Below, piece after piece: positions 9,879-50,103 of a stretch of DNA of 64,000 bases; position 1 is the first letter of the stretch, and every line of letters starts with the position of its first letter. The translations under genes and the position numbers were made by a program. This DNA is from an uncultured Candidatus Saccharibacteria bacterium. GTDB taxonomy: Bacteria; Patescibacteriota; Minisyncoccia; Phycocordibacterales; PALSA-1337. The stretch is from positions 3,626 to 67,625 of the forward strand of contig CAZHHB010000003.1 in the NCBI GenBank assembly GCA_964532285.1, read 5' to 3'. Under the pieces are notes generated by a model. The model ran no database searches, was not told the origin of the DNA, and saw only the letters and a list, made by a program, of their open reading frames with translations.

Positions 9879-10206
9879 TTTGTATTTAAGCTCATGTACT
9901 CTGAGATCTGGAAGAATGTGAATGGTATATAAAAAGAGGCGAACCGAAGTCCGCCCCGTTGAGATGTTTTGTGTTTGTTGTCAGATTCGACTAAACCCGG
10001 TGTTGGCTGGTAATATCCATACCCAACCTTGACTAACCCTTAATAATAATGCAATCTGTCTGTAGATCTACCCTGTAGGTAGCTCTTTTACAGCTCAAAA
10101 CCAAGGCGCCTTGCCTTACAAGGCCCTGTAATGGGGAAGTGCACGCAGTGCGCGCGGTGAGACAAGGCAATGCTTTTCGGCATTTCGTCTCCCGTGGATT
10201 ATACAT

Positions 10207-12546
10207 ATGAAAAAACTGCCTATTAATGACAGTGAAGCAGAGATCGTCTCTGCGATTCAGGGGAACCAAGTGACGATAATACTTGGAGCAACGGGATCAG
10301 GAAAGACGACACAAATTCCAATAATGCTCTATAAAGCAGGGTTTGCTAAAGAAGGCATGATCGGAGTCGCTCAGCCTCGAAAAATAGCCACGACGGCAAT
10401 CGCCGAGTACGTCGCCGAACAGCTTGGAAGCGTGCTCGGGAAAGTCGTCGGCTACAAAGTCAGGTTTGATAATCTGACTGAAAGACAAACAGCAATTAAA
10501 TTTGTTACAAACGGAGTGTTGCTTCGGGAAATTCAGAATGATCCGCAGCTCACAAAATACTCCGTCATTATGATCGACGAAGCTCATGAACGCAGTCTTG
10601 AGATCGACCTTCTCCTAGGACTGATCAAAAATCTCCTCAAGAAAAGAAACGATCTCAAGCTCGTCATCACTTCTGCGACAATCAATGCAGAAAAGTTCAT
10701 GAATTACTTCAAGTCCGATTCTGATGTGCCCGTAGTACTGGTTGGTGGTCGCATGTATCCTGTCGAGGTGAAATATCTCGATTGGAATCCATACGGCCAT
10801 GAAATGGTATCTGCGGCAGTAGAAATGATTGCTTCAATTCACGCTTCAAACGAGCTAGGTGACGTATTGGTGTTTATGACAGGTAGGGATGATATCTCTG
10901 CCGTTGTAAAAAACCTCACTGTCCGCTTGGGTACGAATGCTGTCGTGATGCCTCTCCATGGAGGAATGGAAGCTACCGCCTATAAAGCCGTGTTCCAGCC
11001 CCATAAAGGAAAACGGAAAATCATCGTGGCAACGAATATCGCTGAGACTTCGCTTACGATCGACGGCATAAGGTTCGTCGTCGATAGCGGCCTCATCAAG
11101 CAACAGCACTTCGATTCCCAGACCGGAATGGTTAGCTTGGATATTGTCGAGCATTCTATGGCTGGATGCGAGCAAAGAAAGGGTCGGGCAGGCAGGACGC
11201 AGCCAGGCGTATGCTACCGTCTCTACTCTGAAAAGAGTCTCAAATCACGGCCGTTGTTCACACTGCCGGAAATCCAACGGATGAGCCTATCAAAAGCGGT
11301 GCTCATCATGGAAAGCATGGGCATTAGTGACGTCGAACATTTTGACCTCATTGATCCCCCTGGCTTTCAAGCATTCAGAGAAGCCTATCAGACTCTCATC
11401 ATCATCGGCGCGAACGATTTTCGCACTAAAAAGATAACTGAGCTTGGCAGAAAGATGGCAGAGTTACCGCTCGAACCATGCATCTCCCGAATGCTCATCG
11501 AAGCGGAAAAATACCGCTGTGTGAAAAGCATTGCCGCCTTCGCAGCATTCCAATCGGTACCGCACGTATTCATGCGTCCGCGAGGAAAGGAGGAATCTGC
11601 TGATCATGCGCACCAACAGCTCATGCACCCCAAGTCGGATGCACTTACGCTCATCACCGTTTGGAACAAGTATATTGCAAACGGCCGAAAACAGGACTGG
11701 TGCTACAAGCACTTTCTGAATTCGCACGCTCTTGAGGAGGTGGAACTCATCTACTCCCAGTTGCTTGATATTTTGGAGCAAAACAATGTTTCGCTTACGA
11801 GTACTATGAACGAGGATGTCATCATGAAGTGCGTCGTCTCTGGGCTCGTATTCAACCTCATTGAGCATGATTCGCGATGGGAATATCGTGGCATTTTCCA
11901 GGGGATGGATAAGATCGGCTTACACCCGTCTTCGTCGCTCTACCGCTTGATGCCAAGGTTTGCTGTCGCTACGAGTCTGGTCCGTACGACCAAGCTCTAC
12001 GCTCGGTGTTGTACAGCCGCACCGGTTGAATGGCTCGCGGAGTTCCTTCCGCAGCTCTTCACCTGTAATGAGCCTATCCTGTCCTCATACACCAAAGGAG
12101 AATCGTATGCAGTCGGAGAGCAATCCATCCTGTTCAAAGGGAGGGGAGTCATCCACCGTAGGGTCAAGATTTCCTTGGAATTGGCAAAGCGCCTCAACGA
12201 ATGGAGAGACACACAGATGAAAGCCAAGAGATTGGTACGCCTGGTGTTTCAAAAAAGCGGTGAGCGATACGTTGCCGATTGCAGTGGTGTGGAAGTTGAA
12301 GTGAGCAAGAGAGGAAAAATACTCTCTGTTCGCACAGATGTTCCATACTACTGCGAAGTGGTTCGTCTCGGGCCTGCAGTATTCGCTCATGTCCAAGAAG
12401 AAGCGATAGACCTTGGTGAAAAAGCCAATATTCTGATTCCGGTTCAAAAGGTTGAAAAGCCTGTTTCGACTGCCGACAATCACACTCAGTCACTCGCCCA
12501 GGAATTGGCGAAGGGTTGGGAATTGGTATTGGAAACGCTCAAATAA
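10207..12546 (+). CDS. ATP-dependent DEAH-box RNA helicase, HrpB/HrpA-like
   Basis: GATGSGKTTQIP (motif I), IDEAHERS (DEAH), TSATI (motif III), QRKGRAGR (motif VI); 779 aa. Confidence 0.8.
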   Translation: MKKLPINDSEAEIVSAIQGNQVTIILGATGSGKTTQIPIMLYKAGFAKEGMIGVAQPRKIATTAIAEYVAEQLGSVLGKVVGYKVRFDNLTERQTAIKFVTNGVLLREIQNDPQLTKYSVIMIDEAHERSLEIDLLLGLIKNLLKKRNDLKLVITSATINAEKFMNYFKSDSDVPVVLVGGRMYPVEVKYLDWNPYGHEMVSAAVEMIASIHASNELGDVLVFMTGRDDISAVVKNLTVRLGTNAVVMPLHGGMEATAYKAVFQPHKGKRKIIVATNIAETSLTIDGIRFVVDSGLIKQQHFDSQTGMVSLDIVEHSMAGCEQRKGRAGRTQPGVCYRLYSEKSLKSRPLFTLPEIQRMSLSKAVLIMESMGISDVEHFDLIDPPGFQAFREAYQTLIIIGANDFRTKKITELGRKMAELPLEPCISRMLIEAEKYRCVKSIAAFAAFQSVPHVFMRPRGKEESADHAHQQLMHPKSDALTLITVWNKYIANGRKQDWCYKHFLNSHALEEVELIYSQLLDILEQNNVSLTSTMNEDVIMKCVVSGLVFNLIEHDSRWEYRGIFQGMDKIGLHPSSSLYRLMPRFAVATSLVRTTKLYARCCTAAPVEWLAEFLPQLFTCNEPILSSYTKGESYAVGEQSILFKGRGVIHRRVKISLELAKRLNEWRDTQMKAKRLVRLVFQKSGERYVADCSGVEVEVSKRGKILSVRTDVPYYCEVVRLGPAVFAHVQEEAIDLGEKANILIPVQKVEKPVSTADNHTQSLAQELAKGWELVLETLK

Positions 12547-13380: not shown

Positions 13381-14109
13381 TCAGGCCGGCGAACATGCTG
13401 CGCGTGCCGCCTTGAGCTTCTTCTTGAGTTCACCCCCGTCCTCTTTCAGACAGACCGAGATTCTTCCGATTGCTCGGTAGAGGCCGTCCTGATCGAGATG
13501 AAACGCACTCAATATTTCGGGCAAGGTGATTTTCGGAAAATCATCCCAGACCAGAAACACCACTGCGTCCTTGGCGAGCAGAACTTCGGCGGCTGGATCA
13601 CGGCTTTGCAAAAGATCCGCACCCAAGAAGAAACTGGTGACCGCTTTCTGAACCTTCCCGATGACCTGGGTTGTGTTCATGGTCGTAACGACCGAAGCCG
13701 TCTCGATCGGCTCAGGCGGGTTCGGCTTTCCACCTGCCGAAATGGTCTGTCGTAGGGGACTGCTAGGACTTGTGGTCGGCAAGCCCACCTGTCCTCCTCC
13801 TGGTATGGCCGACAACATGAGTACTTCTGTCTTGATCTCCTCGATCAATGTGGCCAGTGCCGTGTCGGTTTTCAGCAGTTCCTTAACTGTCTTTGAGGCA
13901 GTGTACACCGTCATGGATGTGGTACTCAAGGCCTCGCAGGTGCCTTTGAGCGAGCTGCCGAGGGCGTCTTTCAGGACATGCATGACCACTTGCCGGTGAA
14001 GGCGGTCACCTTCTTTGCCTTTGATTACTTCAGGCGTTGTTTTGTAGTGCACTGCAACCATCTCGATCACTTTTTGAGCGATACGAGGGTCTTGAGTCTT
14101 TCTTTTCAT
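13381..14109 (-). CDS. DnaA domain IV-like (Bac_DnaA_C-type HTH) protein
   Basis: N-terminal 90 aa (IAQKVIEMVAVHYKTTPEVIKGKEGDRLHRQVVMHVLKD...) aligns with the DnaA C-terminal DNA-binding domain pattern; rest low complexity. Confidence 0.45.
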   Translation of the reverse strand: MKRKTQDPRIAQKVIEMVAVHYKTTPEVIKGKEGDRLHRQVVMHVLKDALGSSLKGTCEALSTTSMTVYTASKTVKELLKTDTALATLIEEIKTEVLMLSAIPGGGQVGLPTTSPSSPLRQTISAGGKPNPPEPIETASVVTTMNTTQVIGKVQKAVTSFFLGADLLQSRDPAAEVLLAKDAVVFLVWDDFPKITLPEILSAFHLDQDGLYRAIGRISVCLKEDGGELKKKLKAARAACSPA

Positions 14110-14263: not shown

Positions 14264-17200
14264 TCAAAGGTTCTGTAATTCAACCAGAAAGCGGACTTTC
14301 TCGAACTCTTGAGTGTAATCCGTCATTAGTTGAATGTCTGATTGATCCAATGTTGGGGTTAGCCTCTCCATTGTGACCATTAGAATCTGACGAACTCTTT
14401 CCCGTGTAATGTCATAGGTTTGCCCTAGAGCTTCGTAAGTCAGAGTTTCCTTTGTGGGGTCTCCAGCATAGCGAAGCCTCAAGATTTCCTTGTGACGATC
14501 TGGTACATCGAGTGCGTCGAGCTTGGCATGGAGCTGTTGCACTTTTTGCTTGAATGGCTTGACTACCTTATCAACAATGCTTTTCAGCTCCTCAACCTGT
14601 TTAGGGAAGAGTCGCTTTTGACATTTTTTCAGCAGTTCAAGATCTGATCCATATGGCTCCAAGGTGTACTGCGATCGAATCAGTCCAATCTTCTCCTTGA
14701 GCGCAGGGTTTAACTCCGCCTGCTTCTCAATGTCTCCGCAAATGACGGATACGTTGCCTGGGTCGCTGAAACCGAACATCCTCGCCATTTCCTGACGCTG
14801 TAGCCCGATGTCGTTGTGTAGCAGGTGCATGGTCACATCCCGTGCAAACTTGCGATTTTTTTGTTCTGCATTAGGTCTTGTTACCGACTTTGCGAACAGA
14901 CTCGACTTCTCGATGTTGAATGCTTGGCTCGTGAGAGTAAGCACTTGATCGACAATCGGGGAGGCTGCCATGTTTACTGTCTCGACAGCCTCTGCTAGTT
15001 GCTCGGTCTCGACTGGCTTTTCTTGTCGCAGACCGCACAGGGCGATGATCTTTTCGATTTCGTCCCGAAGGGCGGGATTCTGATCTATCAACCTTTTGAT
15101 CGATCTATATCCATGCATGGCTACCGTGTGCTCTTTATACTGGAGTGCCTGAGCGATTCCAGGAAAGGAAGACTTTAGCTCTTCCCTCATTATGTAAGTG
15201 CAGACCCATCTCACCCACACGATATCGCGTGGCCTTGTTTCGCCGAGTACGGTCTCTGGAGTTTTGCCATAGACCTTACTTACTATACCGACGATATCGT
15301 CAGGTGTAATGATCACTTTTTCCACGCATGTTCCTTCGAGGTTGGCCACAGGCGTTTTGATTAGCTCAACCTCTCCAAGGTTTGCGGCTGGTCGCCCAGG
15401 TATAATCAGGACACCGGGGACCATCTCGCCTTCATCCGCTTGATCCTGGAACACAATAGATACTTCATCCAGAATTAATGCTTCAGTCGGAGTAGAAAGG
15501 TCAGCTTCACCACAAACAATGTTTTCAAGATCATGGACGCGTTTTAATGCAGCCACGAGCTTCTCATCGTTCATTGAGATACCGTATTCACCGAGTTTAT
15601 TCCAGATTTGACTATTCATCTGGCGAATCCGTTCCCGAGTGACTCCAAAACTTGAAGTCTCTGCGATGGATTCCAAGGTATAATCCTCGGCGTGTCCTTC
15701 GAGTCCGTAGTACATTTTGAAGGCAGTTTTTGCCTTTTCTGACACTGGCAATGCTTTGATTGCTGCCAACAATGTTCGGATGTTCCGAGATGCTATCTCC
15801 AAATCCTCCTTTGCTTCAAGAGCAGTGACGGCAGAAGGGAAACATTGATCCATGATTTTGTCGCCGAAGGTAGTGGTGTCTAAATATCTTGACGAGGAGC
15901 AATAGGCCAATTCCTCCAGAGACACGACGGGGACTTTGAGTTGGTGAAGAATCTTCTTCACCTTGTCAACGTCCTCTTCTGCCTTGGCCGCGACTTCTTC
16001 AAGCGTCGGTTCACGCTGCAATTGCATTCCCAATTCACACGTTATCTTGAGGATCTTATTCAGAGCCTCTTGAGCGTGGACTGGCATTCGAACAAGATCC
16101 CTGAAGTTCTGGATTGCTCGTTGCATGTGCTGTCGAACCCACCATGTTGCATATGTAGTGAAGTGAAATCCTTTTTCGGGATCAAACCTTTCCACTGCAA
16201 CCATGAGACCGATATTGCCCTCCTGGACAAGATCGTCGTAGTCCAAACCTCGGCCCATATAATGCGCGGCGATTTTCATCGACAAACGCAAGTTATGAAC
16301 CACGATGGTGTTGCGGGCTTCGTAGTCGCCGTGCATGTGCCACCGGCGTGACAATTCCAACAAGTGTTCGTGTTTTAAGAACTTGTGATTCTTGGCTACA
16401 CGATAGTACGGATTAGTGACACCGGATTCTCGATCGAAGATAAACTTCGGTATGAATTCTCCGTCGGGATCAGCATTCTCGCTTTCCTCACCATCGATTT
16501 CGACTTCTCCGCCTTGTTCCATTTCCAGCAGGGCTTCTTTTGAAGGCTCCTCAGAAACGGTTTCGCTAATGCCGGTTGAGTTGAACAATGCCGGTAGCTT
16601 GCCTTTGTTGATCGGAGCTTCATCGGAACGGCGAGAGTAGGAAGTCACTGGACTCCGTGACTCGGGTTTTTTGTAGTGAACTTCCCCGATCACGATTTTG
16701 ATGTCGATGCCACTCAGAAGTTGAGTGATCCATCGCATTGCTGGTCGGAGCTTCTCACTATCCTGCGAAATTTCCGCAGGGATGAGGGCGCCGATTTGTT
16801 GAGGCGAGATGCGACCTTCGTCTTTGGCTGCTAGAAGAATTCCAAGTGCTTCGGGTTTAAGCCCGTGCTCCTGTAGAATTTTGGCATTCAAGAAAGGCGA
16901 CTCATGACCTTCTCCTGCATATTGCGGTCCCTTAGCTACTGCTAAGAGAGGAACAGTCTGTTCCTCGACTTTCGGTTGCGGTTCCGGCTTTTGAGCCGGA
17001 GCTGCGGGCGCGACAGCAGGGGATTGGACAATATGTGTATGAGTGTGGACGATGTTGAATGTAACAATGATGTGGAGATTTTGCAGTATTTTTTTAATTT
17101 CCTGCAACACCTCCGCCATTTTCTGCCGGTCTTTGGCTAGGGCGCCAGAAACCATTTCACTGATTTCTTGAGGGGTGATTGCCCCTCTTTCCTTGGCTCG

Positions 17201-17293
17201 GGTGAGAGTTTCCTTGGCATGGGGCTTTAACCCCCATCGTTCAAGTACAGCCTCATCAAAACCAACGAGTGCGTGGTCGATTCGGTCTATCAT
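14264..17293 (-). CDS. rpoD: Sigma-70 family factor (RpoD-like, 1009 aa) with duplicated region 1.1, two region-4 HTH units and two DnaA-domain-IV-like modules
   Basis: Region 2: HLLELSRRWHMHGDYEARNTIVVHNLRLSMKIAAHY ... DLVQEGNIGLMVAVERFDPEKGFHFTTYATWWVRQ. Region 4.2: LESIAETSSFGVTRERIRQ and again LTYEALGQTYDITRERVRQI. Two ~60-aa N-terminal repeats resemble sigma70 region 1.1. Two internal segments align with DnaA domain IV (...KEHTVAMHGYRSIKRL). Confidence 0.75.
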   Translation of the reverse strand: MIDRIDHALVGFDEAVLERWGLKPHAKETLTRAKERGAITPQEISEMVSGALAKDRQKMAEVLQEIKKILQNLHIIVTFNIVHTHTHIVQSPAVAPAAPAQKPEPQPKVEEQTVPLLAVAKGPQYAGEGHESPFLNAKILQEHGLKPEALGILLAAKDEGRISPQQIGALIPAEISQDSEKLRPAMRWITQLLSGIDIKIVIGEVHYKKPESRSPVTSYSRRSDEAPINKGKLPALFNSTGISETVSEEPSKEALLEMEQGGEVEIDGEESENADPDGEFIPKFIFDRESGVTNPYYRVAKNHKFLKHEHLLELSRRWHMHGDYEARNTIVVHNLRLSMKIAAHYMGRGLDYDDLVQEGNIGLMVAVERFDPEKGFHFTTYATWWVRQHMQRAIQNFRDLVRMPVHAQEALNKILKITCELGMQLQREPTLEEVAAKAEEDVDKVKKILHQLKVPVVSLEELAYCSSSRYLDTTTFGDKIMDQCFPSAVTALEAKEDLEIASRNIRTLLAAIKALPVSEKAKTAFKMYYGLEGHAEDYTLESIAETSSFGVTRERIRQMNSQIWNKLGEYGISMNDEKLVAALKRVHDLENIVCGEADLSTPTEALILDEVSIVFQDQADEGEMVPGVLIIPGRPAANLGEVELIKTPVANLEGTCVEKVIITPDDIVGIVSKVYGKTPETVLGETRPRDIVWVRWVCTYIMREELKSSFPGIAQALQYKEHTVAMHGYRSIKRLIDQNPALRDEIEKIIALCGLRQEKPVETEQLAEAVETVNMAASPIVDQVLTLTSQAFNIEKSSLFAKSVTRPNAEQKNRKFARDVTMHLLHNDIGLQRQEMARMFGFSDPGNVSVICGDIEKQAELNPALKEKIGLIRSQYTLEPYGSDLELLKKCQKRLFPKQVEELKSIVDKVVKPFKQKVQQLHAKLDALDVPDRHKEILRLRYAGDPTKETLTYEALGQTYDITRERVRQILMVTMERLTPTLDQSDIQLMTDYTQEFEKVRFLVELQNL

Positions 17294-17461: not shown

Positions 17462-19471
17462 ATGTACACACCTTATGACTATCAAGAAGGGTGTCTTGTT
17501 GTCTTAAAGACAACTCGCATCCAAGGAAAAACCGTCGCACTCATCGTGATGGCGAGCGGTCTTGGAAAGACCGTGACCGTTGCCTTCGATGCTAAAGAGT
17601 GGCTCAAGGAAAACAAGGGCAGGGTTTTATATCTCTGTCATCAGAACGATATTCTCGGCCAAGCTCAGCAGACGTTCGAGTCAATCCTCGGTAGCGGTTA
17701 CACTTACGGATTCTATACGGGTAGGGAAAAAACAGCCCACGGGGCAGATTTTCTGTTCGCCTCCTTCCAGACCATGGCGAAGAATACTCAAAGGGTGTTT
17801 TCGTCAGACGAATTCGCATACATCATTGTTGACGAGAGTCACCATTCGCAGGCGCCGTCTTATCTGAAGATCGTGGAATACTTCAAGCCGAAATTTCTGC
17901 TTGGAGCGACTGCCACGCCAGATCGTGCCGATAGTCTCAATATCCGCTCGGTTTTCGGCGAGGAAGTTTACAATCTTCCTCTCGAGAAAGCTCTTGCACA
18001 GGGACTGCTCACTAGAGTGAACTATCGCCTCGTCACGGACGAAATATCTCTCGACGAGGTCAACAGGACTAACGTCGAAGATTGGTCTCTCGAGGATATC
18101 GACCACAATGTCTTCATTCCCAAACGGGACGAAGAAATTTCCGCCTCAATCGATCGGCATGCGGCTGAACTTGAAGATCAGAGGATCATTGTCTTTGCGA
18201 GCACTATAGCTCGGGCCGAGCAGTTGGCCCAGCGCATTTCGGGAAGTATAACCATTCACTCCGAAGTTCCAACCAAGGAGAGATTGGTCAGGCTCGAAAT
18301 GTTTCGCCAGGGAATGGTTCGTGCGGTGATCACTGTTGATTGCTTTAACGAAGGTATCGACATACCAGAGGCTAATGTAATTGTGTTTCTGCGTTCGACG
18401 ACCTCGATGAGGATATTTTATCAACAGCTTGGTCGGGGCCTACGCCTCTCTCCAGGGAAAGATAAAGTTATCGTCCTCGATTTCGTAGGAAATGCAGAGC
18501 GACTCGTCATGCTCAAGGAACTTGCTGATGCAATTGGTATTCACTATTCGGAGGAAATGGCTGCTCGTGTAAACAAGCGGCAGAATCCCTTCGATATCAA
18601 ATTCGATGAAAAGGCTCAGGGCGTTCTGGATCTCGTCAAACGCATTCGCGTGAAACGAGTCGCTGATGTGCCTGATCTGCTCTTAGAGTATTCACCCCGC
18701 AACCCATTGTCTGCATCGAGTATCTCAGCCAAAAGCTGGAAAGATGTCTGGTGGAAATGCGGAAGATGCGAACATGAATGGCAAGCCAGCCCTGCCGCTA
18801 AAGCATATGGGAGGCAGTGTCCCAAATGTGAAGGACAAGTAACTGCGGAAAATAATCTTGCAGTTCTCCGTCCAAACCTCGCTAGGCAATACACAAGCCG
18901 AAATCTTCTCCCTGCAGATCAAATAATAGGGAAGACGAAAGAGATAGCTTGGTGGAAATGCCCTAAGTGCTCCTATGAATATGGGGCCAGACCTTACAGC
19001 CGCATATACCGAAGCGATGGCTGTCCTGCATGTGCGGCAGAAATGCCTGCATATAAAGACAACTTGGCGTTTCATTCACCCAAACTAGCACTTGAATACT
19101 CTTATACCAACATGCTCTCACCGGAACATGTCGGCTTCAGAACTACATTCGGGCGTTGGTGGATTTGCTCGGACTGTGGCAACAGCTATCAAGCGAGCGC
19201 GCTAGCTAGGGATAATGGAAAAGGCTGTCCAAGATGCACCGCTAAGGTCCCCACGAAAGTGGTCAACCTTATAACGACCCACCCTTTCCTTGCGGAAGAA
19301 TATTCCTCCAGAAACAGGAAATCGGCAGACACGATTCTTGCTGATACCGACGAACAGTTGTGGTGGGTATGCTCTTCTTGCGGCCGTTATTGGCAAGCAA
19401 GTGGAAGGGAACGACTCAACGGAAAGATTTGTCCCCATTGCCCCAAGCTGATACCGGTTTCGGTTGAGTAA
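17462..19471 (+). CDS. SF2 helicase (XPB/ResIII-like) with four C-terminal CxxC-CxxC zinc-ribbon repeats
   Basis: MASGLGKTVT (motif I), VDESHH (II), GATATPDR (III), QQLGRGLR (VI); C-terminal repeats WWKCGRCEHEW...CPKC x4. Confidence 0.75.
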   Translation: MYTPYDYQEGCLVVLKTTRIQGKTVALIVMASGLGKTVTVAFDAKEWLKENKGRVLYLCHQNDILGQAQQTFESILGSGYTYGFYTGREKTAHGADFLFASFQTMAKNTQRVFSSDEFAYIIVDESHHSQAPSYLKIVEYFKPKFLLGATATPDRADSLNIRSVFGEEVYNLPLEKALAQGLLTRVNYRLVTDEISLDEVNRTNVEDWSLEDIDHNVFIPKRDEEISASIDRHAAELEDQRIIVFASTIARAEQLAQRISGSITIHSEVPTKERLVRLEMFRQGMVRAVITVDCFNEGIDIPEANVIVFLRSTTSMRIFYQQLGRGLRLSPGKDKVIVLDFVGNAERLVMLKELADAIGIHYSEEMAARVNKRQNPFDIKFDEKAQGVLDLVKRIRVKRVADVPDLLLEYSPRNPLSASSISAKSWKDVWWKCGRCEHEWQASPAAKAYGRQCPKCEGQVTAENNLAVLRPNLARQYTSRNLLPADQIIGKTKEIAWWKCPKCSYEYGARPYSRIYRSDGCPACAAEMPAYKDNLAFHSPKLALEYSYTNMLSPEHVGFRTTFGRWWICSDCGNSYQASALARDNGKGCPRCTAKVPTKVVNLITTHPFLAEEYSSRNRKSADTILADTDEQLWWVCSSCGRYWQASGRERLNGKICPHCPKLIPVSVE

Positions 19472-19621: not shown

Positions 19622-21616
19622 ATGTTTGAATCCAGATTCTATCAAGACGATTGCCTACGGATCCTTCAAAAGGTTCGACAAAAAGGCATACTTCGGGCGC
19701 TCGCTATAATGGCAAGTGGTCTCGGAAAGACGGTTACGATGGCCTTTGATGCCCTTAGTTTTCGAAAGCAATTTCCGAAGGCTCGGGTGCTCTACATTTG
19801 TCATCAAAATCAAATATCCAATCAGGCTCGTGGCACCTTTGAAGCGATCAACGGCAACAGTTGTACATATGGTTATTACAACGGCATCGAGAAGATCGCA
19901 CACTCAGTAGATTTCCTGTTCGCTTCATTTCAGACAATGAGAACGCACATGAAAAACTTTCGTCCAGACGAGTTCGACTATGTGGTTGTTGATGAAAGTC
20001 ATCACACATACGGCGACACTTTTTTGGATGTAGTGACCTACTGGAAGCCCAAGTTCCTGTTAGGGATGACGGCGACACCTGACCGCACTGACTGTCAAGA
20101 TATACGCAAAGTTTTTGGTCAGGAGGTATTCTACCTTCCGCTCGAAGAAGCACTTGCTCAAAGCCTGCTCACCCCGGTCGATTATCGCTTGATGACGGAT
20201 GAAATTCGACTCAAGAAGACGATCGAGTCGGCTGAACGGCGCTTGAGTTTGAAGATGCTTAATCGCACGATTTTTGTCCCAAGAAGGGATGAAGAAATTG
20301 TACGAATTATCCATAAACACTCACAAGAACTTCAAGAACCGAAGATTATCATCTTCTGTCAGTCGATTCAGTACGCTGAAGAATTGGCAAAGATCATGAC
20401 TGGGTCAATGACGATTCATTCGCGCGTATCGCTCAAGGAGAGGATTGTTCGAACAGAATTGTTCCGCCAAGGGCTCATCACTACGTTACTGACTGTGGAT
20501 GTTTTTAACGAAGGTATCGACATACCGGAAGCGAATGTTATCGTGTTCCTTAGGACCACAACATCTCACGTAATATTTTTCCAGCAACTCGGGCGCGGTC
20601 TGCGTCTGAGTGCTGGAAAGGATCGTGTGGTTGTTCTCGACTTTGTGGGTAGTTGCGAGCGAGTCAAAACCATCTACACTCTGTGGGACAATGTGAAAGC
20701 TCGCAGACAAAAAGTCATCAGTGCCACACCTGCTGCGAACCGAAACATGGGGAATCATACTTCTCGGAATATTGATCCCTTTTACCTCAATATGGGCGTC
20801 GTTGACTTCGAGGAGAAAATCCTCAAGGTGGTCGATATCGTTCGCAGGATCAATGACGGGTTTACTCGGGAGGAATGCATCTTGATGCTTCAGGCTTTTG
20901 CCGCACGGCTAAAGAGATCGCCCACACAAAAAGAAACCCATAAAAACAGACAGATGCCGAGTCAGTCTCTATATTGTAGGTACTTTGGTAGCCACACTGA
21001 GGCATTGAAGGCAGCGGGGCTTGCAGTCAATCAGATTCGAGATGTAACCGATGAAGAACTTCTTGAACAACTCCGAGGTGTCCAACAGAGGCTCGGTCAC
21101 TCACCTTCTCAGGGAGAACTCGCACAGGCTTCGAAAGACGGCTTGTGTTCTTGTGAACCTATGTTCCGTGAGCGCTTTGGATCGTTAAACGAGGCGCTTA
21201 AGGAAATTGGCTCAACACCTGCTCGGCAAGTTGGTCTCACAAAGATGGAGCTTGTCGCTCAGCTTCAGAAGCTGAAGGAGAAGGTCAAACGAGTTCCAAC
21301 GGTTGAGGATCTGATTGAAGCGTCAGCACAAAAGAAGATGGCAAGTTATTCTGTTTTCCGTAAGCACTTCAAGACCTGGAACAATGCACTTAGAGAAGCA
21401 GGCCTTACCGATAAAAAGGTCGAGGTACCTCACTATACCGAGGCAGAGTTGGTGGCTGATTTGAAAAAAGCCAACAGTATTCTGGGGCATGCACCAACGA
21501 CTGGGGATATGAATCGTCTTCGTAAGCAAGGGAAATTGAAAGTGGGAAGTCTCGGGGCTTTCTACTGGCGATTCAAGACTTGGAATAATACCCTCAAAGT
21601 CGCCGGATTGAAATAA
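19622..21616 (+). CDS. SF2 helicase (XPB/ResIII-like), paralog of the upstream gene, with four C-terminal homing-endonuclease-associated-type helical repeats
   Basis: Same motif set (MASGLGKTVT, VDESHH, GMTATPDR, QQLGRGLR); C-terminal ~45-aa repeats ending ...FKTWNNALREAGL x4. Confidence 0.7.
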   Translation: MFESRFYQDDCLRILQKVRQKGILRALAIMASGLGKTVTMAFDALSFRKQFPKARVLYICHQNQISNQARGTFEAINGNSCTYGYYNGIEKIAHSVDFLFASFQTMRTHMKNFRPDEFDYVVVDESHHTYGDTFLDVVTYWKPKFLLGMTATPDRTDCQDIRKVFGQEVFYLPLEEALAQSLLTPVDYRLMTDEIRLKKTIESAERRLSLKMLNRTIFVPRRDEEIVRIIHKHSQELQEPKIIIFCQSIQYAEELAKIMTGSMTIHSRVSLKERIVRTELFRQGLITTLLTVDVFNEGIDIPEANVIVFLRTTTSHVIFFQQLGRGLRLSAGKDRVVVLDFVGSCERVKTIYTLWDNVKARRQKVISATPAANRNMGNHTSRNIDPFYLNMGVVDFEEKILKVVDIVRRINDGFTREECILMLQAFAARLKRSPTQKETHKNRQMPSQSLYCRYFGSHTEALKAAGLAVNQIRDVTDEELLEQLRGVQQRLGHSPSQGELAQASKDGLCSCEPMFRERFGSLNEALKEIGSTPARQVGLTKMELVAQLQKLKEKVKRVPTVEDLIEASAQKKMASYSVFRKHFKTWNNALREAGLTDKKVEVPHYTEAELVADLKKANSILGHAPTTGDMNRLRKQGKLKVGSLGAFYWRFKTWNNTLKVAGLK

Positions 21617-38533: not shown

Positions 38534-38788
38534 ATGGCAACAACCAATTCTGCGTTTATGAAACCTTTGAATGTTAGTCCTGAACTCGCCGTTGTAGTGG
38601 GTAATGGACCAATGCCTAGATCTGAAGTCGTCAAGAAACTCTGGGTTTATATAAAAGGTAAGAATCTACAGGATCCTAAGAATAAGCGTAATATCGTCGC
38701 TGATGAAGCTTTGAAGAAAGTATTCGGCGGTAAAGATGTCGTCAACATGTTCGAGATGACCAAACTTGTATCAAAGCACCTCTCCTAA
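38534..38788 (+). CDS. SWIB/MDM2-domain protein
   Basis: PELAVVVGNGPMPRSEVVKKLWVYIKGKNLQDPKNKRNIVADEALKKVFG matches the SWIB fold consensus. Confidence 0.7.
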   Translation: MATTNSAFMKPLNVSPELAVVVGNGPMPRSEVVKKLWVYIKGKNLQDPKNKRNIVADEALKKVFGGKDVVNMFEMTKLVSKHLS

Positions 38789-38817: not shown

Positions 38818-38850
38818 TAAATCCCCAGAACACCCTGGGGATTTATGTTT
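38818..38850 (+). terminator. Rho-independent terminator
   Basis: aaatccccag-aacac-cctggggattt + atgtttt. Confidence 0.6.
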
Positions 38851-38885
38851 TGAGGGGAAACACCTGAAGTTATCCACAGTTTTTA

Positions 38886-38915
38886 TTGACTGGTGAACGG
38901 TAGTTCACCTATAAT
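38886..38915 (+). promoter_or_regulatory. SOS promoter: TTGACT - 18 nt spacer containing LexA (Cheo-type) box GAACggtaGTTC - TATAAT
   Basis: TTGACT 38886-38891; GAAC-N4-GTTC 38895-38906; TATAAT 38910-38915. Confidence 0.6.
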
Positions 38916-38942
38916 TGTAATGTACTAGAAAACATTACGAAC

Positions 38943-39146
38943 ATGAGCAAACATCAAACAATAAAAGCTATACGCACCGAGATCGACAGGCTCAACCAAG
39001 AGATTGATCTCAGAATCATTCGTGGTATGTCATATAGGCATCAGTCTCTGCGACACAAGTTCCTGATGCGTCAGCTCGACAGACTCATGCCGAGGAAGTC
39101 TTGGTTTGCCAGACTGCCGAGCCTTGCGTCCGCTTTTATGTTCTAG
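38943..39146 (+). CDS. Small (67 aa) protein co-transcribed with lexA from the SOS promoter
   Basis: ORF begins 28 nt after -10 and ends 3 nt before lexA start. Confidence 0.4.
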   Translation: MSKHQTIKAIRTEIDRLNQEIDLRIIRGMSYRHQSLRHKFLMRQLDRLMPRKSWFARLPSLASAFMF

Positions 39147-39149
39147 GCT

Positions 39150-39716
39150 ATGACTGATAACTACAAAAACAAAATAATCTCTTTTTATAAAAGAACCAAA
39201 CGCATGCCAAGCTATACCGAGATTATGACCATGCTCGGTTTCAAATCCAAGAACGCTGTTTACAAACTGGTCAACAAACTGATCGGTGAGGGTGTCTTAG
39301 ATAAAGATTCTACGGGTAGGCTCATACCGAACAAACTAATTGGCGAAGTACCTCTATTGGGTCTAGTTGAAGCAGGTTTCCCGACACTTGCCGAAGAAGA
39401 CACTACCAATACTCTCAATCTTGATGATTATCTCATTGAGCACAAAGATTCCACATACTTATTACAGGTCAAGGGTGACTCTATGATAGATGCCGGTATA
39501 CAGGAGGGTGATCTTGTTATTGCCGAACGCAAGAACGAGCCCAAAGATGGAGATATTGTGATCGCAGAAGTAGATGGTGGTTGGACCATGAAATATTTCC
39601 GCAAAAAGGGAAGTACAGTGTATTTAGAACCAGCCAATCGTGCTTATAGCCCCATCTATCCTGAGCATGACCTCAAGGTTGCCGCTATCGTCAAAGGGGT
39701 TGTCAGGAAGTATTAA
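39150..39716 (+). CDS. lexA: LexA repressor (S24 peptidase)
   Basis: N-terminal winged HTH; catalytic GDSMIDAGI (Ser) and KYF..KG (Lys) of the S24 autopeptidase. Confidence 0.85.
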   Translation: MTDNYKNKIISFYKRTKRMPSYTEIMTMLGFKSKNAVYKLVNKLIGEGVLDKDSTGRLIPNKLIGEVPLLGLVEAGFPTLAEEDTTNTLNLDDYLIEHKDSTYLLQVKGDSMIDAGIQEGDLVIAERKNEPKDGDIVIAEVDGGWTMKYFRKKGSTVYLEPANRAYSPIYPEHDLKVAAIVKGVVRKY

Positions 39717-39822: not shown

Positions 39823-40113
39823 GTGATTATTATTAAATTAATAATCACAAATATGTCATTGGAACAAAAAGACCTTGAGATTATAGAGCACTTGATATAC
39901 AAAAACGCCGACGATATTGCCATCTCCATAGCTAGGAGTTTTGAGAGATTGGAAGAGCGTGTAGATTCTATGGAATCACGGCTGTACTCCAGATTATCTG
40001 AACTAGAGGATAGGATAGAAGCTGGTCGCCAGGACACTGCTGATACTTTCGGCGAAATTAGAGATGAGATGCGGGAGATATTCCGTCGGAGAGAGGCGTT
40101 GGAACTTGATTAA
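39823..40113 (+). CDS. Hypothetical coiled-coil protein
   Basis: ORF only. Confidence 0.3.
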   Translation: MIIIKLIITNMSLEQKDLEIIEHLIYKNADDIAISIARSFERLEERVDSMESRLYSRLSELEDRIEAGRQDTADTFGEIRDEMREIFRRREALELD

Positions 40114-45293: not shown

Positions 45294-45539
45294 TTGAGCT
45301 CAAACTCAACTACGCATTAACTATTATTAGGTATCAGAAAAGTTATAGAAACAAAAGCCCCAAGCCTAAAAGTGAGGGGCTTTTGTGTTGGGAGGGTATT
45401 CGAAAATAGGTCTCTAAATTCAATGGTGTAAGTCCTAATGTCGTACAACTAAGGATGACTTCCTAGTAGATTTCAATGATGAATTGATGAAGATTATTGA
45501 CAAAGTTCAGGATTGATAATAGTATACAATTGAACAAAA

Positions 45540-45863
45540 TTGATCTATATGAAAATACTAAAAAAGGTTGCATTGGCTGATCCCATAAGGATAGCTGGGA
45601 AGCGTCTTGTGTGTTCAGCTTGTAAAGCAGAATTTGAGCTGGAAGTAAGCGATGGGTCGTCAATCAGGGAAGCTGTTCTTCTTGAAACAAAGGCCACACC
45701 GCAAAATCGAGGTCTTCACATGATGAGACAATTGGTGATAACTTGTCCGAATTGTTATCACGATGTTCCTCTGGATGACCGGCTTCGACAATTCGAGTCT
45801 CAGTGGAAATGCATTTCGAGCTCGACAGGCGGTTATTCACAAATGGGGGGATTGCTTGGATAG
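45540..45863 (+). CDS. Hypothetical protein with CxxC...CxxC zinc-ribbon
   Basis: CSACK ... CPNCYH. Confidence 0.3.
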   Translation: MIYMKILKKVALADPIRIAGKRLVCSACKAEFELEVSDGSSIREAVLLETKATPQNRGLHMMRQLVITCPNCYHDVPLDDRLRQFESQWKCISSSTGGYSQMGGLLG

Positions 45864-46435
45864 AGGCTTTTGGAATCAGAGAGCTGGCGTACAAATGATA
45901 ATGTCGTCGGCTTTTTTTTACCAAAAAATCATATCGCAGTAAACAAACTGTGTAAGATATACAGCACCACAAACAATCTAGGAAGTCCAAAAAAACTTGC
46001 AGGACTGATATTTTGAGTTATATAATCACGGCAGGTCTTTAAAATACTGGCGGGAACGAGTGGGGGACCTGTTTTGGTTTAGGAGTTAATCTTCTTCAGC
46101 TTCCCCTTCAGGGTTTTTATGAATCTTGGAGGGGAAGTCTGTAAGAGTCGAACTTCCTAATTATAAGCCAAACAGAAAAATCCATATATGGGCAAAAAAC
46201 AGGCGGCGAACCGCAAAGTTACTGTTCACTGGATTGCTCTCTCAAACCTTAAAAATCTTAAGGTGAAGCGTCACGGATACATCGCTGGATGTCTATACAT
46301 CCCCTATGTCATCACGGACGATGGTCAGATGTACTTCGTAAAGAGGAATGTCTAACCTTCGCAGAACAATCTATATTCTCGTCAGTATTTTGAAGATCTA
46401 TTACTTTTCATAATCCTATCCTCTATACTTTTAAT

Positions 46436-46473
46436 GTCATTAGAAAACGCCAACCTGTGTGGCGTTTTCCTTT
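46436..46473. repeat. 38-bp perfect direct repeat (copy 1) containing a 9-bp-stem hairpin
   Basis: gtcattagaaaacgccaacctgtgtggcgttttccttt; identical copy at 51776-51813. Confidence 0.9.
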
Positions 46474-46475
46474 TG

Positions 46476-46499
46476 TTGACTTCTAAAATATGATATAAT
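46476..46499 (+). promoter_or_regulatory. Promoter-like element: TTGACT and extended -10 TGaTATAAT, with a 12-nt spacer (short of the canonical ~17 nt)
   Basis: Immediately downstream of hairpin repeat copy 1; ~600 nt upstream of the Dcm gene. Confidence 0.4.
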
Positions 46500-47092
46500 A
46501 TTGGTAGTGCTCTTATCTCTTCGGAGTACGATAGTGGAAAGAAGGGGGTCAGCATTCGAACAAAATGCTTTTGAAATATTTAGTGGTAAGCATTTTGGGG
46601 AAGGAAACTTCTCCAAGGTCAAACTTGAGGGTTAACTCCCAGAGTGCTGACCACTGAATAATTCTGAAGCACAAGTCCGAGGTGGTTTATAAGATTAATT
46701 TTGGGTGGGAAATATAGTCTGAACTTCGACCAGCGGAATCATCAGCCGTGACGACCTACACCTCAGTAGGTAAAGGCATTATACAGATGGTTAATTCAAC
46801 GAGCCATGTCAGAAAGACAATCCAGGCTCGCCGGACGTAATAAACTTGGCCAATTCGAGGAACTCGAAAAGGCAAAGGAGAAGAAGAGCTCGACAGTCGA
46901 GCATCTCGCTCTATCAGGTTACGGCGACGCCAAGAAGGACAAATAGCATTTGTCGCAGGGAAATTGAAAACCGCCCCTGCAAAGCAAGAACGGTTTTCGA
47001 TCAAATGTAAGTATTCTTACAAGCAAGACATCCTGAAGGGGTGTTTTGCTTTTTAATTATACCTTACAGAATTTGTACCTTATCAGACGTCT

Positions 47093-48352
47093 GTGGATAA
47101 TGCCACTTTTTGTATCCCTTGTATCCCAATGAAGATATCCACAGGGGTTTACTGGGTAAACATGATATCATGTTTACACAGTGCTTTTCTAATTGAAAAT
47201 ATCATGATGAATAAACAAATATTAATAAGAAATATTTCTCCTGAAATAAGCGAATGGATAGAAAGTGGACGCTTACAGAGTAACATGACTCAGCAGGAAT
47301 TTGTTCTGTCGATGCTGAAGAATGTTAGTACGAATCACTTAGATAATTCGCAGAGAATATTTCCACGACCGAACGTACCAACAACATTTAGTTTCATTGA
47401 TCTGTTTGCGGGGATAGGAGGTTTTAGGATTGCTCTTGAAAATCTTGGTGGTCGTTGCGTATTTACGTCTGAGTGGGACAAGTACGCTCAAAAAACCTAC
47501 AAGGCGTGGTTTGGAGATTTGCCTCATGGTGATATAAGACAGATAAATCCATCTGAGATTCCGGATCACGATATCTTGGCCGCAGGTTTTCCTTGCCAAC
47601 CATTTTCTATTGCCGGCGTGTCAAAAAAAATAAGTCTTGGAAAGGAGCATGGGTTCAATGATCAAAAGCAAGGAAATCTATTCTTTTATCTGGCTGATGT
47701 TATTGAGGCAAAAAGGCCCCCAGTAATTTTCCTTGAAAACGTCAAAAATCTGCAGTCACACGATCAAGGCAGAACATGGCAAGTTATAGAAAATAGATTA
47801 AAAGAGCTTGGCTATGCAATATTTCATAAAGTTCATAATGCGGCTAATTGGGTCCCACAACACAGGGAAAGAGTATTTATTTTAGGATTTGATAAGAGAG
47901 TATTTGGGGACAATGTAAAGTTTGAATTTCCAGAAACTCCTAATAGCAAACCTAAATTGAAGGACATCTTGGAAAAGAAGCCGGATTCCAAGTACACACT
48001 TACGCCACATCTATGGGAATATCTCCAAAATTACGCTAAACGTCATCGCGAGAAGGGTAACGGGTTCGGATTTGGCATTGCTGACCCAAACGGTATAACA
48101 CGCACTCTCAGCGCAAGATATTACAAGGATGGATCTGAAATCCTTATAAAGCAGAACGGAGGAAAGCCACCAAGACGATTATCACCACAGGAATGTGCAA
48201 AACTTATGGGGTTTCCAAAAGAGTGCAAGATTGTAGTTTCAGACACTCAAGCCTATAGACAATTTGGTAACGCTGTTGTGGTTCCGGTCATTCAAAGTGT
48301 GGCAAAAAATGCTATAGAGACTTTTTTAAAGCACAAGAAAATGAAGCGGTAA
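47093..48352 (+). CDS. DNA (cytosine-5)-methyltransferase (Dcm family); true start probably internal (~47206)
   Basis: FIDLFAGIGGF (motif I), GFPCQPFSIAG (motif IV), ENV (VI), RQFGNAVVVPV (X). Confidence 0.85.
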   Translation: MDNATFCIPCIPMKISTGVYWVNMISCLHSAFLIENIMMNKQILIRNISPEISEWIESGRLQSNMTQQEFVLSMLKNVSTNHLDNSQRIFPRPNVPTTFSFIDLFAGIGGFRIALENLGGRCVFTSEWDKYAQKTYKAWFGDLPHGDIRQINPSEIPDHDILAAGFPCQPFSIAGVSKKISLGKEHGFNDQKQGNLFFYLADVIEAKRPPVIFLENVKNLQSHDQGRTWQVIENRLKELGYAIFHKVHNAANWVPQHRERVFILGFDKRVFGDNVKFEFPETPNSKPKLKDILEKKPDSKYTLTPHLWEYLQNYAKRHREKGNGFGFGIADPNGITRTLSARYYKDGSEILIKQNGGKPPRRLSPQECAKLMGFPKECKIVVSDTQAYRQFGNAVVVPVIQSVAKNAIETFLKHKKMKR

Positions 48353-48415
48353 AGCAACCGGTGGGGACAATATGCGCACTGTCGCAAAAGCCTCAAAAGC
48401 GCTATTATTAAAGCC

Positions 48416-49603
48416 ATGAAACTTTCGGAATATTTTGCGTTTATATCATACAAGAGACTAAGTGCAGTTGAAACAGATACAGAGATTTCGCATCAGCATG
48501 AATTCAATGGCATAGGATCGTTAAAGGAAATGTTTGGCACCAGTAAGAAAGAATTCACAGCCAAGTTGGCCTACTTGGGCGAAGATCTTGATGAACCGCT
48601 TGTAGCCGATGTCGAAATGACTTGGTATGACGCGAGAGAGAAACATCTCACAAGAACCGAGTACAGGTTGTACTACAAACAGAGCGAAGTTAATAAGTAC
48701 ATGCAGGAAGGTGATTTGATGGTAGTCGGGTTGCGACCAGATGGAAAGATATATTTTTTTATTGCGCAGAAAGACTCGACGTATGCCAATCAGCTTGTGT
48801 TGCTTTTTGATTTGGAATCAGATATAGGAACTACTGCTAAGTCGAAAATGATTGCAGGAACGAAAAATGACGTGGAAAACGTGGATTTTGTACGCTCGTT
48901 TATTCTTGAAGAGCTTGGAATTGAAGTTAAAGGTACTGATGAAAATTATCTCGAGGCTCTATTGCAGAAGTTTCCTTCAGGGTTTCCGAATACCAATGAA
49001 TTCTCAGAATTTGCCCGTAGCACGATTCCGGGAATTGATTCTAAAATAGACCCGGATGGGGCCCTCATGAAATGGATGGAGCGGGAGGAACTTCTCTTTA
49101 GGACGTTGGAAAAACATCTTGTGTCTGAAAAAATCAAAAATATCGGCACAGATGTAGATCTGTTTATGAAACTATCTCTTTCGATACAGAACAGGAGAAA
49201 AGCTCGTGTTGGCTTTGCACTTGAAAATCATCTTGAGCGAATCTTTCTAGATTGCGAGGTTCAATATTCTCGTGGAAAAGAAACAGAGAATAACTCCAAA
49301 CCTGATTTTGTATTTCCAAGTATTGAAAATTACCGTGATGCAAAGTTTCCAGATGAAAAATTATTTATGCTCGGATCAAAATCGACTTGTAAAGATAGGT
49401 GGAGACAAGTTTTGGCTGAAGCGGCTAGAATTAAGAACAAGCATTTACTTACTCTGGAACCAGGTATCAGTGTTAACCAAACATCAGAGATGATGGCCAA
49501 CAATCTCAATCTCGTAATTCCTCGAGAACTTTTTGGAACCTATACTAACGACCAGCAAAAATGGCTCCTGAGCCTGAAAGACTTTATTGCTCTTTTGGAT
49601 TAA
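48416..49603 (+). CDS. Putative Type II restriction endonuclease partner of the m5C MTase
   Basis: Immediately downstream in same orientation; possible PD-(D/E)xK-like segment KPDFVFPS...ENYRDAK; no family recognised. Confidence 0.35.
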   Translation: MKLSEYFAFISYKRLSAVETDTEISHQHEFNGIGSLKEMFGTSKKEFTAKLAYLGEDLDEPLVADVEMTWYDAREKHLTRTEYRLYYKQSEVNKYMQEGDLMVVGLRPDGKIYFFIAQKDSTYANQLVLLFDLESDIGTTAKSKMIAGTKNDVENVDFVRSFILEELGIEVKGTDENYLEALLQKFPSGFPNTNEFSEFARSTIPGIDSKIDPDGALMKWMEREELLFRTLEKHLVSEKIKNIGTDVDLFMKLSLSIQNRRKARVGFALENHLERIFLDCEVQYSRGKETENNSKPDFVFPSIENYRDAKFPDEKLFMLGSKSTCKDRWRQVLAEAARIKNKHLLTLEPGISVNQTSEMMANNLNLVIPRELFGTYTNDQQKWLLSLKDFIALLD

Positions 49604-49626
49604 AGTCGCAGCTTATAGATCAATAT

Positions 49627-49827
49627 TCATTAGACGCTCTAAGCAGGAGGCGAGGATTTGACGATGGTCTGGGGTCGGATAGCCCAGTATTCGCGGTACC
49701 GAAATGTCCATTTTTTGATTACTCGTATAGTCACCTTGCAAGATCGTCCCGTGGGCAAACACACCACTCGCCCCGACCCAACTTTAAGTGTGATAAGCGG
49801 TTACTATTTCGCCACTCCTGCACGGAG
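49627..49827. repeat. ~200-bp repeat, copy 1 (~90% identical to 55012-55213)
   Basis: Begins TCATTAGAcgctct..., ends ...ccactcctgcacggag; shares the TCATTAGA start with the 38-bp repeat. Confidence 0.85.
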
Positions 49828-50103
49828 TAGGGAACACATTTATGAATAACCATGCACCATAGGCGTGCAAGTCAATTATCTATAATCTGTAATCAGTAAG
49901 TTATTATTCGAAAGCGGGCAAAAAGATTTGTTATTGGCGGGAATTACTCATGGAAATGACTTGCTACGAGCAAGCCAAACTTTTGCAACATCGGACGATC
50001 TATATCAATAGGGAATGGCTTTAAGAAGAATTGGGCTAGAAACAGACCATGTCGCACAATAGAAACTTGCAAGTCACATTGTCGCACAACTGTGGATAAC
50101 TTT

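Follow-up and report, generated by a model that had tools for sequence, protein, structure and literature searches.

A 64-kb stretch of DNA from contig CAZHHB010000003.1 (hereafter the window; all positions are window coordinates, forward strand unless indicated) carries a two-gene operon in which a small gene, here called x, precedes lexA, and whose promoter combines a LexA operator with an upstream DnaA-type box. Taken as a whole, operon, operator and box would represent the SOS master operon of a Paceibacteria (Patescibacteria/Candidate Phyla Radiation) bacterium, a reading to which we assign a probability of around 0.6. Within it, the autoregulation of the x-lexA operon by LexA is very likely on sequence grounds, and joint control of this operon by DnaA is probable. 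Neither the x family nor the invariant box of DnaA type at this promoter appears to have been described before.

An earlier sequence-only reading of this DNA had proposed an SOS-type promoter with a GAAC-N4-GTTC operator in its spacer, followed by a small open reading frame (ORF) and lexA. All elements that it named were recovered from the window sequence where it had placed them (Table 1), and the proposal itself was borne out: the product of the downstream gene scored 128.6 bits against the NCBIfam LexA profile TIGR00498 (cutoff 110.95) and around 80 genomes keep the arrangement. The promoter matches the sigma-70 consensus at 11 of 12 positions and was the top-scoring one in a 2-kb scan. The operator core GAACggtaGTTC (38895-38906) is part of a longer inverted repeat that takes up the complete 18-nt spacer between the -35 and -10 hexamers. 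The exact sequence GTGAAC-N4-GTTCAC occurs only once in the window, at the lexA promoter, and the bare GAAC-N4-GTTC core occurs five times against 0.94 expected, a count that was reached in none of 100 shuffles. The other four cores (6515, 21155, 40602 and 53484) were ruled out as LexA operators, considering that they are located inside genes and lack the extended arms. The DnaA-type 9-mer TTATCCACA, present in three exact copies in the window, is indeed located 5' of the -35 hexamer, although its 3' end is 7 nt away from it and not 8 nt as had been claimed. An inverted repeat in the 5'-untranslated region probably straddles the transcription start; Rfam recognized no RNA family in the window.

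Related loci were obtained in two ways. A one-genome-per-species scan yielded 38 loci encoding an x relative, and a metagenome scan for which more distant members of the family served as queries added 44 loci; the promoter counts given below refer to 78 x-lexA promoters, representing 72 to 74 unique sequences. The layout of these 78 promoters is constant and consists of aGTTATCC(A/C)CAg, a gap, the -35 hexamer, GGTGAAC-N4-GTTCAC(C/T) and the -10 hexamer. When 72 unique promoters are compared, each position of the operator arms is invariant (the same base in 71-72 of 72) and the central N4 is variable with a preference for GATC, which is indicative of a dimer-binding site rather than of inherited sequence identity. 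The combination of invariant arms and a GATC-preferring centre suggests that the ideal site is the 18-bp palindrome GGTGAACGATCGTTCACC. The operator is always found between the -35 (TTGAC(A/G) or (C)TTGCA in relatives, at the same place) and the -10 (TATA(A/C)T), abutting both hexamers and covering the spacer, so that repression would be achieved by blocking RNA polymerase. The earlier designation of the operator as a Gram-positive-type box was appropriate for the GAAC-N4-GTTC core and not for its flanks: the consensus of the Cheo box, as in Bacillus and Mycobacterium, is CGAAC...GTTCG, whereas the sites described here have T and A in the place of the outer C and G in 72 of 72 promoters, with GG before and CC after (GGTGAAC/GTTCACC). 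The conservation of both operator and box amid divergent flanking sequence is the strongest evidence against chance.

The DnaA-type box, mentioned only in passing in the sequence-only reading as a perfect 9-mer, turned out to be conserved to the same extent as the operator. A recognizable box is present 5' of the operator in 76 of the 78 promoters and the remaining two carry one-mismatch variants. A comparison of 74 unique promoters shows next to no variation at T-T-A-T-C-C-(A 63/C 11)-C-A, and the flanking positions are predominantly A (59), G (51) and G (57). The window box matches the DnaA consensus TTATNCACA at nine of nine positions. Exact TTATCCACA was found in 55 of 72 unique promoters, the variants being TTATCCCCA (11 promoters), ATATCCACA (2), CTATCCACA (2), TTATCCACT (1) and TTGTCCACA (1); one further relative has CTATTCACA, which differs exactly at the N of the classical consensus. 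The box is centred near -48. The gap between box and operator measures 13-16 nt in 69 promoters and 25-28 nt in four, i.e. about one helical turn more, which suggests that the box has to face the same side of the double helix. Outside the lexA promoters nine boxes were found in 410 kb, against around eight expected by chance (estimated from base composition). Given this lack of enrichment, the box is specific to the x-lexA promoter and not a general promoter feature; it is, by this pattern of conservation, a predicted second and independent regulatory site.

The association between x and lexA was equally strict, as every one of the 77 loci that could be checked has lexA 3' of x and on the same strand. 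More explicitly, this holds for 35 of the 35 loci of the first set that are not ended by a contig edge, for 39 of the 39 loci of the second set with enough downstream sequence (the other five end at or within ~220 nt of the x stop codon) and for three more distant members of 86-90 aa (L093, L094 and L095). The distance between the x stop and the lexA start is mostly below 30 nt, with a few loci showing 100-530 nt or inserted genes. The two genes overlap in eleven loci, by 1 to 17 nt (4 nt in five of these), which makes translational coupling in these relatives probable. In 12 of 72 loci the ATG of x is found only 6-7 nt past the -10 hexamer, which implies a leaderless mRNA and speaks for a real promoter as well as a real start codon. 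The neighboring genes vary: a SWIB gene and an HD-domain gene occur in the window only and cysS is found downstream in seven loci. As the flanking genes are not conserved, promoter, x and lexA seem to behave and move as one unit.

In the three more distant loci the layout of box, -35, operator and -10 is identical. In L093 (3001-6129) x-lexA is followed on the same strand by umuD-like and IMS/umuC-like genes. In L094 (4001-8059) a Bro-N gene and a 100-aa ORF separate x from lexA, and a gene for a Cho/RNase_T fusion nuclease and a umuD-like gene follow lexA. The clusters of L093 and L094 have a single LexA operator, 5' of x, and their continuation into repair genes counts in favor of an SOS context. 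Finally, L095 has a uracil-DNA glycosylase gene a few genes 3' of x-lexA.

The gene downstream of x, which starts 3 nt past its stop codon and in the same frame, is by its predicted product a genuine LexA. Apart from the profile score mentioned above, its product showed a Pfam Peptidase_S24 match (E=7e-28), and an alignment to LexA of E. coli places the segments VEAGFP, GDSM and WTMKYF at A84-G85, S119 and K156, respectively, thus providing the window protein with the Ala-Gly cleavage site and a Ser111/Lys148 dyad. The homologs at the related loci are 47-85% identical and the full length of 188 aa is kept in relatives. The public gene call (locus L083, 9585-10513) begins LexA at Met19, yielding a protein of 170 aa in which helix 1 of the DNA-binding domain would be lost.

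The likeness to the Cheo-box promoters of lexA (dinR) in B. subtilis, other Firmicutes and Actinobacteria lies in the GAAC-N4-GTTC palindrome over the lexA promoter and in the LexA protein, where the S24 autopeptidase domain, the Ala-Gly site and the Ser/Lys dyad are shared. The present system differs in that one operator is positioned exactly in the spacer, that the arms read GGTGAAC/GTTCACC and that lexA is second in the operon. LexA motifs and SOS regulons of Patescibacteria have been derived by comparative genomics by Sanchez-Osuna, Barbe and Erill in 2017 (Environ Microbiol 19:3465), as conveyed by the papers that cite this work (PMC8565304, PMC7739468). A LexA-autoregulated promoter of the GAAC-N4-GTTC type is the ordinary part of the system and was probably described for Patescibacteria in that study.

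Gene x encodes a real, highly basic and presumably cytoplasmic protein that is predicted to form a helical hairpin. AlphaFold2 predicted helices for residues 3-27 and 32-48 (mean pLDDT 83.9), the last 19 residues being of low confidence; the core of the family has a median net charge of +6. A conserved pattern W-F-x-R/K-x4-hydrophobic-S-x-F-hydrophobic-F/L characterizes the C-terminal tail. There are 47 close homologs. Conservation at the amino-acid level amounts to 42-75% identity, with M1, N18, I21, D22, G28, Y31 and H38 invariant. The profile search extended the family to 314 clusters at 50% identity, which consist exclusively of small stand-alone proteins, and all named members are from Patescibacteria/Parcubacteria (Candidatus Taylorbacteria, Paceibacterota, Parcubacteria and 'Patescibacteria group' assemblies). 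The statement that the 67-aa ORF has no recognizable family therefore holds for curated families, considering that no significant match was obtained in Pfam, NCBIfam, PHROGs or the PDB sequence profile search, and does not hold in the sense of an orphan. No relatives of x were found on viral contigs. The window sequence is part of a groundwater metagenome contig (ena:ERZ27247837:k141_2239250) whose public annotation lacks the x ORF.

The function of x is the least certain part of the reading, and here, as for the wider regulon and for the identity of the factor that reads the box, several results weigh against what we propose. To begin with LexA itself, its DNA-binding domain is divergent, scoring 17.5 bits with Pfam LexA_DNA_bind (PF01726) where the cutoff is 23.7. 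The best PDB match of residues 14-54 was the DNA-binding domain of E. coli LexA, with a weak E of ~0.3, and the third helix FKSKNAVYKLV is nearest to FRSPNAAEEHL of E. coli. A comparison of the recognition helix with that of B. subtilis LexA had been suggested in the sequence-only reading; the alignment favored E. coli instead, though only weakly, and the helix does not resemble that of B. subtilis LexA. In addition, no second GTGAAC-N4-GTTCAC operator was found, allowing up to two mismatches, in the 554 kb formed by the window and 82 related loci; all matches were x-lexA promoters, except for a few intragenic chance matches. A weak operator-like site at 9938, 5' of a gene for a DEAH helicase, was dropped because of its three mismatches and the lack of a promoter context. 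Three exact operator-plus-TATA matches on viral contigs were not used either; one of these is found 5' of an MgsA_C-domain gene, on an apparently unrelated contig with many overlapping ORFs on both strands.

With respect to x, it may tentatively, at odds well below even, be viewed as an SOS checkpoint effector, a division or replication inhibitor that binds a protein and whose tail would either anchor it to the membrane or a partner or act as a degron. The more specific suggestion of the sequence-only reading, a SulA/YneA-like division inhibitor, had as its basis the position beside lexA and the control by LexA only, and it was not upheld. No SulA domain was found in Pfam or NCBIfam at E<=0.1, no LysM domain in Pfam and no transmembrane segment, the maximal Kyte-Doolittle hydropathy over 19 residues being 0.36 (family median 0.39). 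Just one of 196 members reaches a hydropathy of 1.6, and the median length of the uncharged stretch at the C-terminus is 9 residues; for a transmembrane helix the tail lacks both the length and the hydrophobicity. Its helical hydrophobic moment showed a weak excess over shuffled controls (0.31 versus 0.25). A comparison with the PDB folds using Foldseek recovered generic helical hairpins only and no informative neighbor. Moreover, x shares the lexA promoter, so that basal production of LexA should always be accompanied by that of x; an accessory of the LexA/RecA switch would fit this at least as well as an effector.

Such an accessory role, as LexA co-repressor, modulator of LexA cleavage or modulator of the RecA filament, has to be considered, and we rate its chances as about equal to those of an effector, well below even. 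The linkage of x and lexA at every checkable locus, often with overlapping codons, suggests co-production at comparable levels, and x remains the first gene even where other genes are inserted before lexA (L094). As the promoter is that of LexA, x would be present in undamaged cells, and its very basic nature (core net charge ~+6) would suit contact with DNA or with an acidic protein surface. Parallels are provided by gp7 of phage GIL01 and DdrR of Acinetobacter, which act on LexA, and by DinI and RecX, which act on RecA. GIL01 gp7 and DdrR are, like x, very small, and are partners of LexA-type repressors; however, there is no detectable homology and they belong to phage or Acinetobacter systems, whereas x is the first gene of a chromosomal operon. 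What argues against an accessory is that the searches of Pfam, NCBIfam, PDB and PHROGs showed no sequence or structural likeness of x to any such factor, and that effectors too can share the operon of lexA, like dinF in E. coli and sulA in Pseudomonas, the latter being co-transcribed with lexA.

The known SOS division inhibitors of Gram-positive bacteria are likewise encoded by small and poorly conserved LexA-controlled genes next to lexA, as in the case of YneA, SosA, ChiZ and DivS; these are divergent from lexA and their products have one transmembrane segment and in some cases LysM (PMC6851548). The resemblance of x to these proteins is in size, LexA control and location beside lexA, while it differs in being co-directional and 5' of lexA, in lacking both the transmembrane segment and LysM and in being a basic cytoplasmic hairpin. 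Another comparison is offered by Sda of B. subtilis. This protein is a small helical hairpin as well, its turnover is governed by a short tail at the C-terminus, and its targets are sporulation kinases, which are not expected in the Paceibacteria lineage. There is no sequence similarity between x and Sda and Sda was absent from the Foldseek PDB matches; the likeness is therefore restricted to architecture and regulatory logic.

The most plausible reader of the box is DnaA, an assignment that, going by the match to the universal consensus, seems to have somewhat better than even odds. Co-control by DnaA and LexA has been reported for uvrB, recN and dinJ of E. coli, where DnaA modulates SOS expression (Wurihan et al. 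2018, PMC6015884). The DnaA and LexA boxes overlap in these cases and DnaA competes with LexA or represses (PMC6015884), whereas the box described here is separate, lies 5' of the -35 hexamer of the lexA promoter itself at a spacing that is consistent with a fixed helix face, and remains invariant throughout an entire class of bacteria. Promoter-adjacent DnaA boxes are known to activate or repress nrdAB, and DnaA regulates sda by direct binding to its promoter (PMC8203912). In the library that was searched, no paper joins 'DnaA box' with 'lexA promoter'.

The assignment to DnaA meets with several difficulties. In two near-identical loci the box is 8 nt nearer to the operator (gap 6 nt), and there is a single box per promoter, unlike in oriC. 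The variant TTATCCCCA departs at position 7 from the relaxed DnaA consensus of E. coli. The related loci contained no dnaA gene or oriC region by which the specificity of DnaA in this lineage could be assessed and no oriC-like clusters of boxes, L010 having four loose boxes 5' of its lexA promoter; a DnaA recovered as a match (P0053) keeps the RDHTT signature of domain IV. The tolerance of C for A at position 7 (11 of 72 promoters) and the single box would also suit a factor other than DnaA, such as a lineage-specific regulator, x, or a protein with a DnaA domain IV. In fact, the window encodes a sigma-70 factor fused to two DnaA C-terminal (DnaA_C) domains, with the E/D-H-T...H signature preserved in the first of them, as well as a protein of 242 aa with a weak DnaA_C match. 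Nevertheless, we consider a reader other than DnaA unlikely. The universal DnaA box is matched exactly in the majority of promoters, as specified above, and the sigma fusion is apparently rare (5 fusion relatives among the 8000 best word-sharing candidates scored) in comparison to a box that occurs in ~80 diverse genomes. The lack of enrichment at other promoters argues against a general promoter element carried by sigma; for this reason, and given the rarity of the fusion, TTATCCACA as a general promoter element for the sigma/DnaA_C fusion was rejected as main explanation.

The notion that the motifs are due to chance and that an ordinary lexA is simply preceded by a non-coding leader or a spurious ORF of 67 codons may draw on the absence of x from the public gene call and on the four bare cores inside genes of the window, but it is refuted as far as comparative sequence data can do so, by the amino-acid conservation of x with its seven invariant residues over hundreds of clusters, by promoter, operator and box being kept in ~78 loci with divergent flanks, and by the leaderless geometry that fixes the start codon in 12 loci.

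With anatomy and conservation taken from the loci themselves, and LexA binding, cleavage and induction taken from what applies to the LexA family, the preferred reading of the operon would imply the following circuit. A LexA dimer on GGTGAAC-N4-GTTCACC would occlude the near-consensus sigma-70 promoter. Upon DNA damage, RecA-stimulated self-cleavage of LexA, at the Ala-Gly site and by means of the Ser/Lys dyad, would free the promoter and a single mRNA would be made with x first and LexA second, which may be leaderless in some of the relatives. Freshly made LexA would then shut the promoter again. DnaA bound at the box would allow the operon to integrate the replication-initiation status with DNA damage, where both activation and repression are possible. 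The most far-reaching version, in which LexA and DnaA jointly control the SOS operon and x founds a phylum-specific cytoplasmic checkpoint or SOS-switch family that is inseparable from lexA, is put forward with considerable reserve.

Patescibacteria make up a large share of bacterial diversity, have tiny genomes with very few regulators, and almost none have been cultured. The conserved promoter, with its DnaA-type box, -35, operator and -10, provides a concrete and testable regulatory circuit for this group and suggests that the replication initiator may also take part in regulating the damage response, right at its top, the lexA promoter. If true, the operon would represent a minimal module for a damage-plus-replication checkpoint in bacteria with very small genomes. 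Similarly, x is a promising candidate for an SOS component not yet accounted for, be it a checkpoint effector or a cofactor of LexA or RecA; if x were a mere accessory of little-known importance, what remains would be a tidy but ordinary autoregulated lexA operon. The palindrome GGTGAACGATCGTTCACC can be used directly to map the SOS regulon in complete Paceibacteria genomes.

Table 1. Coordinates of the x-lexA operon, its promoter elements and other features within the 64-kb window
Feature	Position	Strand	Description
SWIB/MDM2-domain gene	38534-38788	+	stand-alone, 84 aa, E=1e-31
Terminator-like hairpin	~38821-38846		between SWIB gene and SOS promoter
DnaA-type upstream box AGTTATCCACAG	38868-38879	+	core 9-mer TTATCCACA at 38870-38878, perfect DnaA-box match
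-35 hexamer TTGACT	38886-38891	+	promoter scan, sigma-70 consensus
LexA operator GGTGAAC-ggta-GTTCACC	38892-38909	+	perfect inverted repeat, fills entire -35/-10 spacer
-10 hexamer TATAAT	38910-38915	+	promoter scan, sigma-70 consensus
Inverted repeat in 5'-untranslated region	38917-23 / 38932-38		
Gene x	38943-39146	+	67 aa, basic (pI 11.7), predicted helical hairpin, hydrophobic C-terminal tail WFARLPSLASAFMF
lexA	39150-39716	+	188 aa, putative N-terminal winged helix-turn-helix and S24 autopeptidase domain
AT-rich palindrome GTGATTATTA-N6-TAATAATCAC	39823-39848		perfect
Coiled-coil ORF	39853-40113		86 aa
Sigma-70/DnaA_C fusion gene	14264-17293	-	1009 aa
Neighbors of the fusion gene	10207-12546	+	
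	13381-14109	-	
	17462-19471	+	
	19622-21616	+	
Stretch before cassette	45300-47090		1.8 kb
TTATCCACAG repeat	47091-47100	-	
Restriction-modification cassette	47093-49603		DNA_methylase and EcoRII-C genes
Stretch after cassette	49604-50103		0.5 kb
TTATCCACAG repeat	50090-50099	-	

Immediately 5' of the SOS promoter a gene for a SWIB/MDM2-domain protein is found, from which the promoter is separated by the terminator-like hairpin. Downstream of lexA, the perfect AT-rich palindrome directly precedes the ORF for a coiled-coil protein and may be an operator for another regulator.

The fused sigma-70 factor consists of regions 2, 3 and 4 (r2, r3 and r4), followed by the two DnaA_C domains and a second region 4. 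A sigma factor with readers of DnaA boxes is unusual. An intein was ruled out as an explanation of the insert, given the full r2-r3-r4 that is followed by two DnaA_C domains and the extra r4. The gene is part of an island with a higher GC content (0.48 versus ~0.40), and other groundwater contigs share its neighborhood, which encodes two ResIII/Helicase_C helicases with zinc-finger or HNH repeats, a DEAH/OB_NTP_bind helicase and the 242-aa protein with the weak DnaA_C match.

Apart from the box at the SOS promoter, the window has just two exact copies of the 10-mer TTATCCACAG (Table 1), which flank the restriction-modification cassette as direct repeats. They could have arisen by target-site duplication, or they could be DnaA boxes at the borders of a mobile island. 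The two stretches that border the cassette contain no ORF of more than 110 aa and gave no Rfam or tRNA match.

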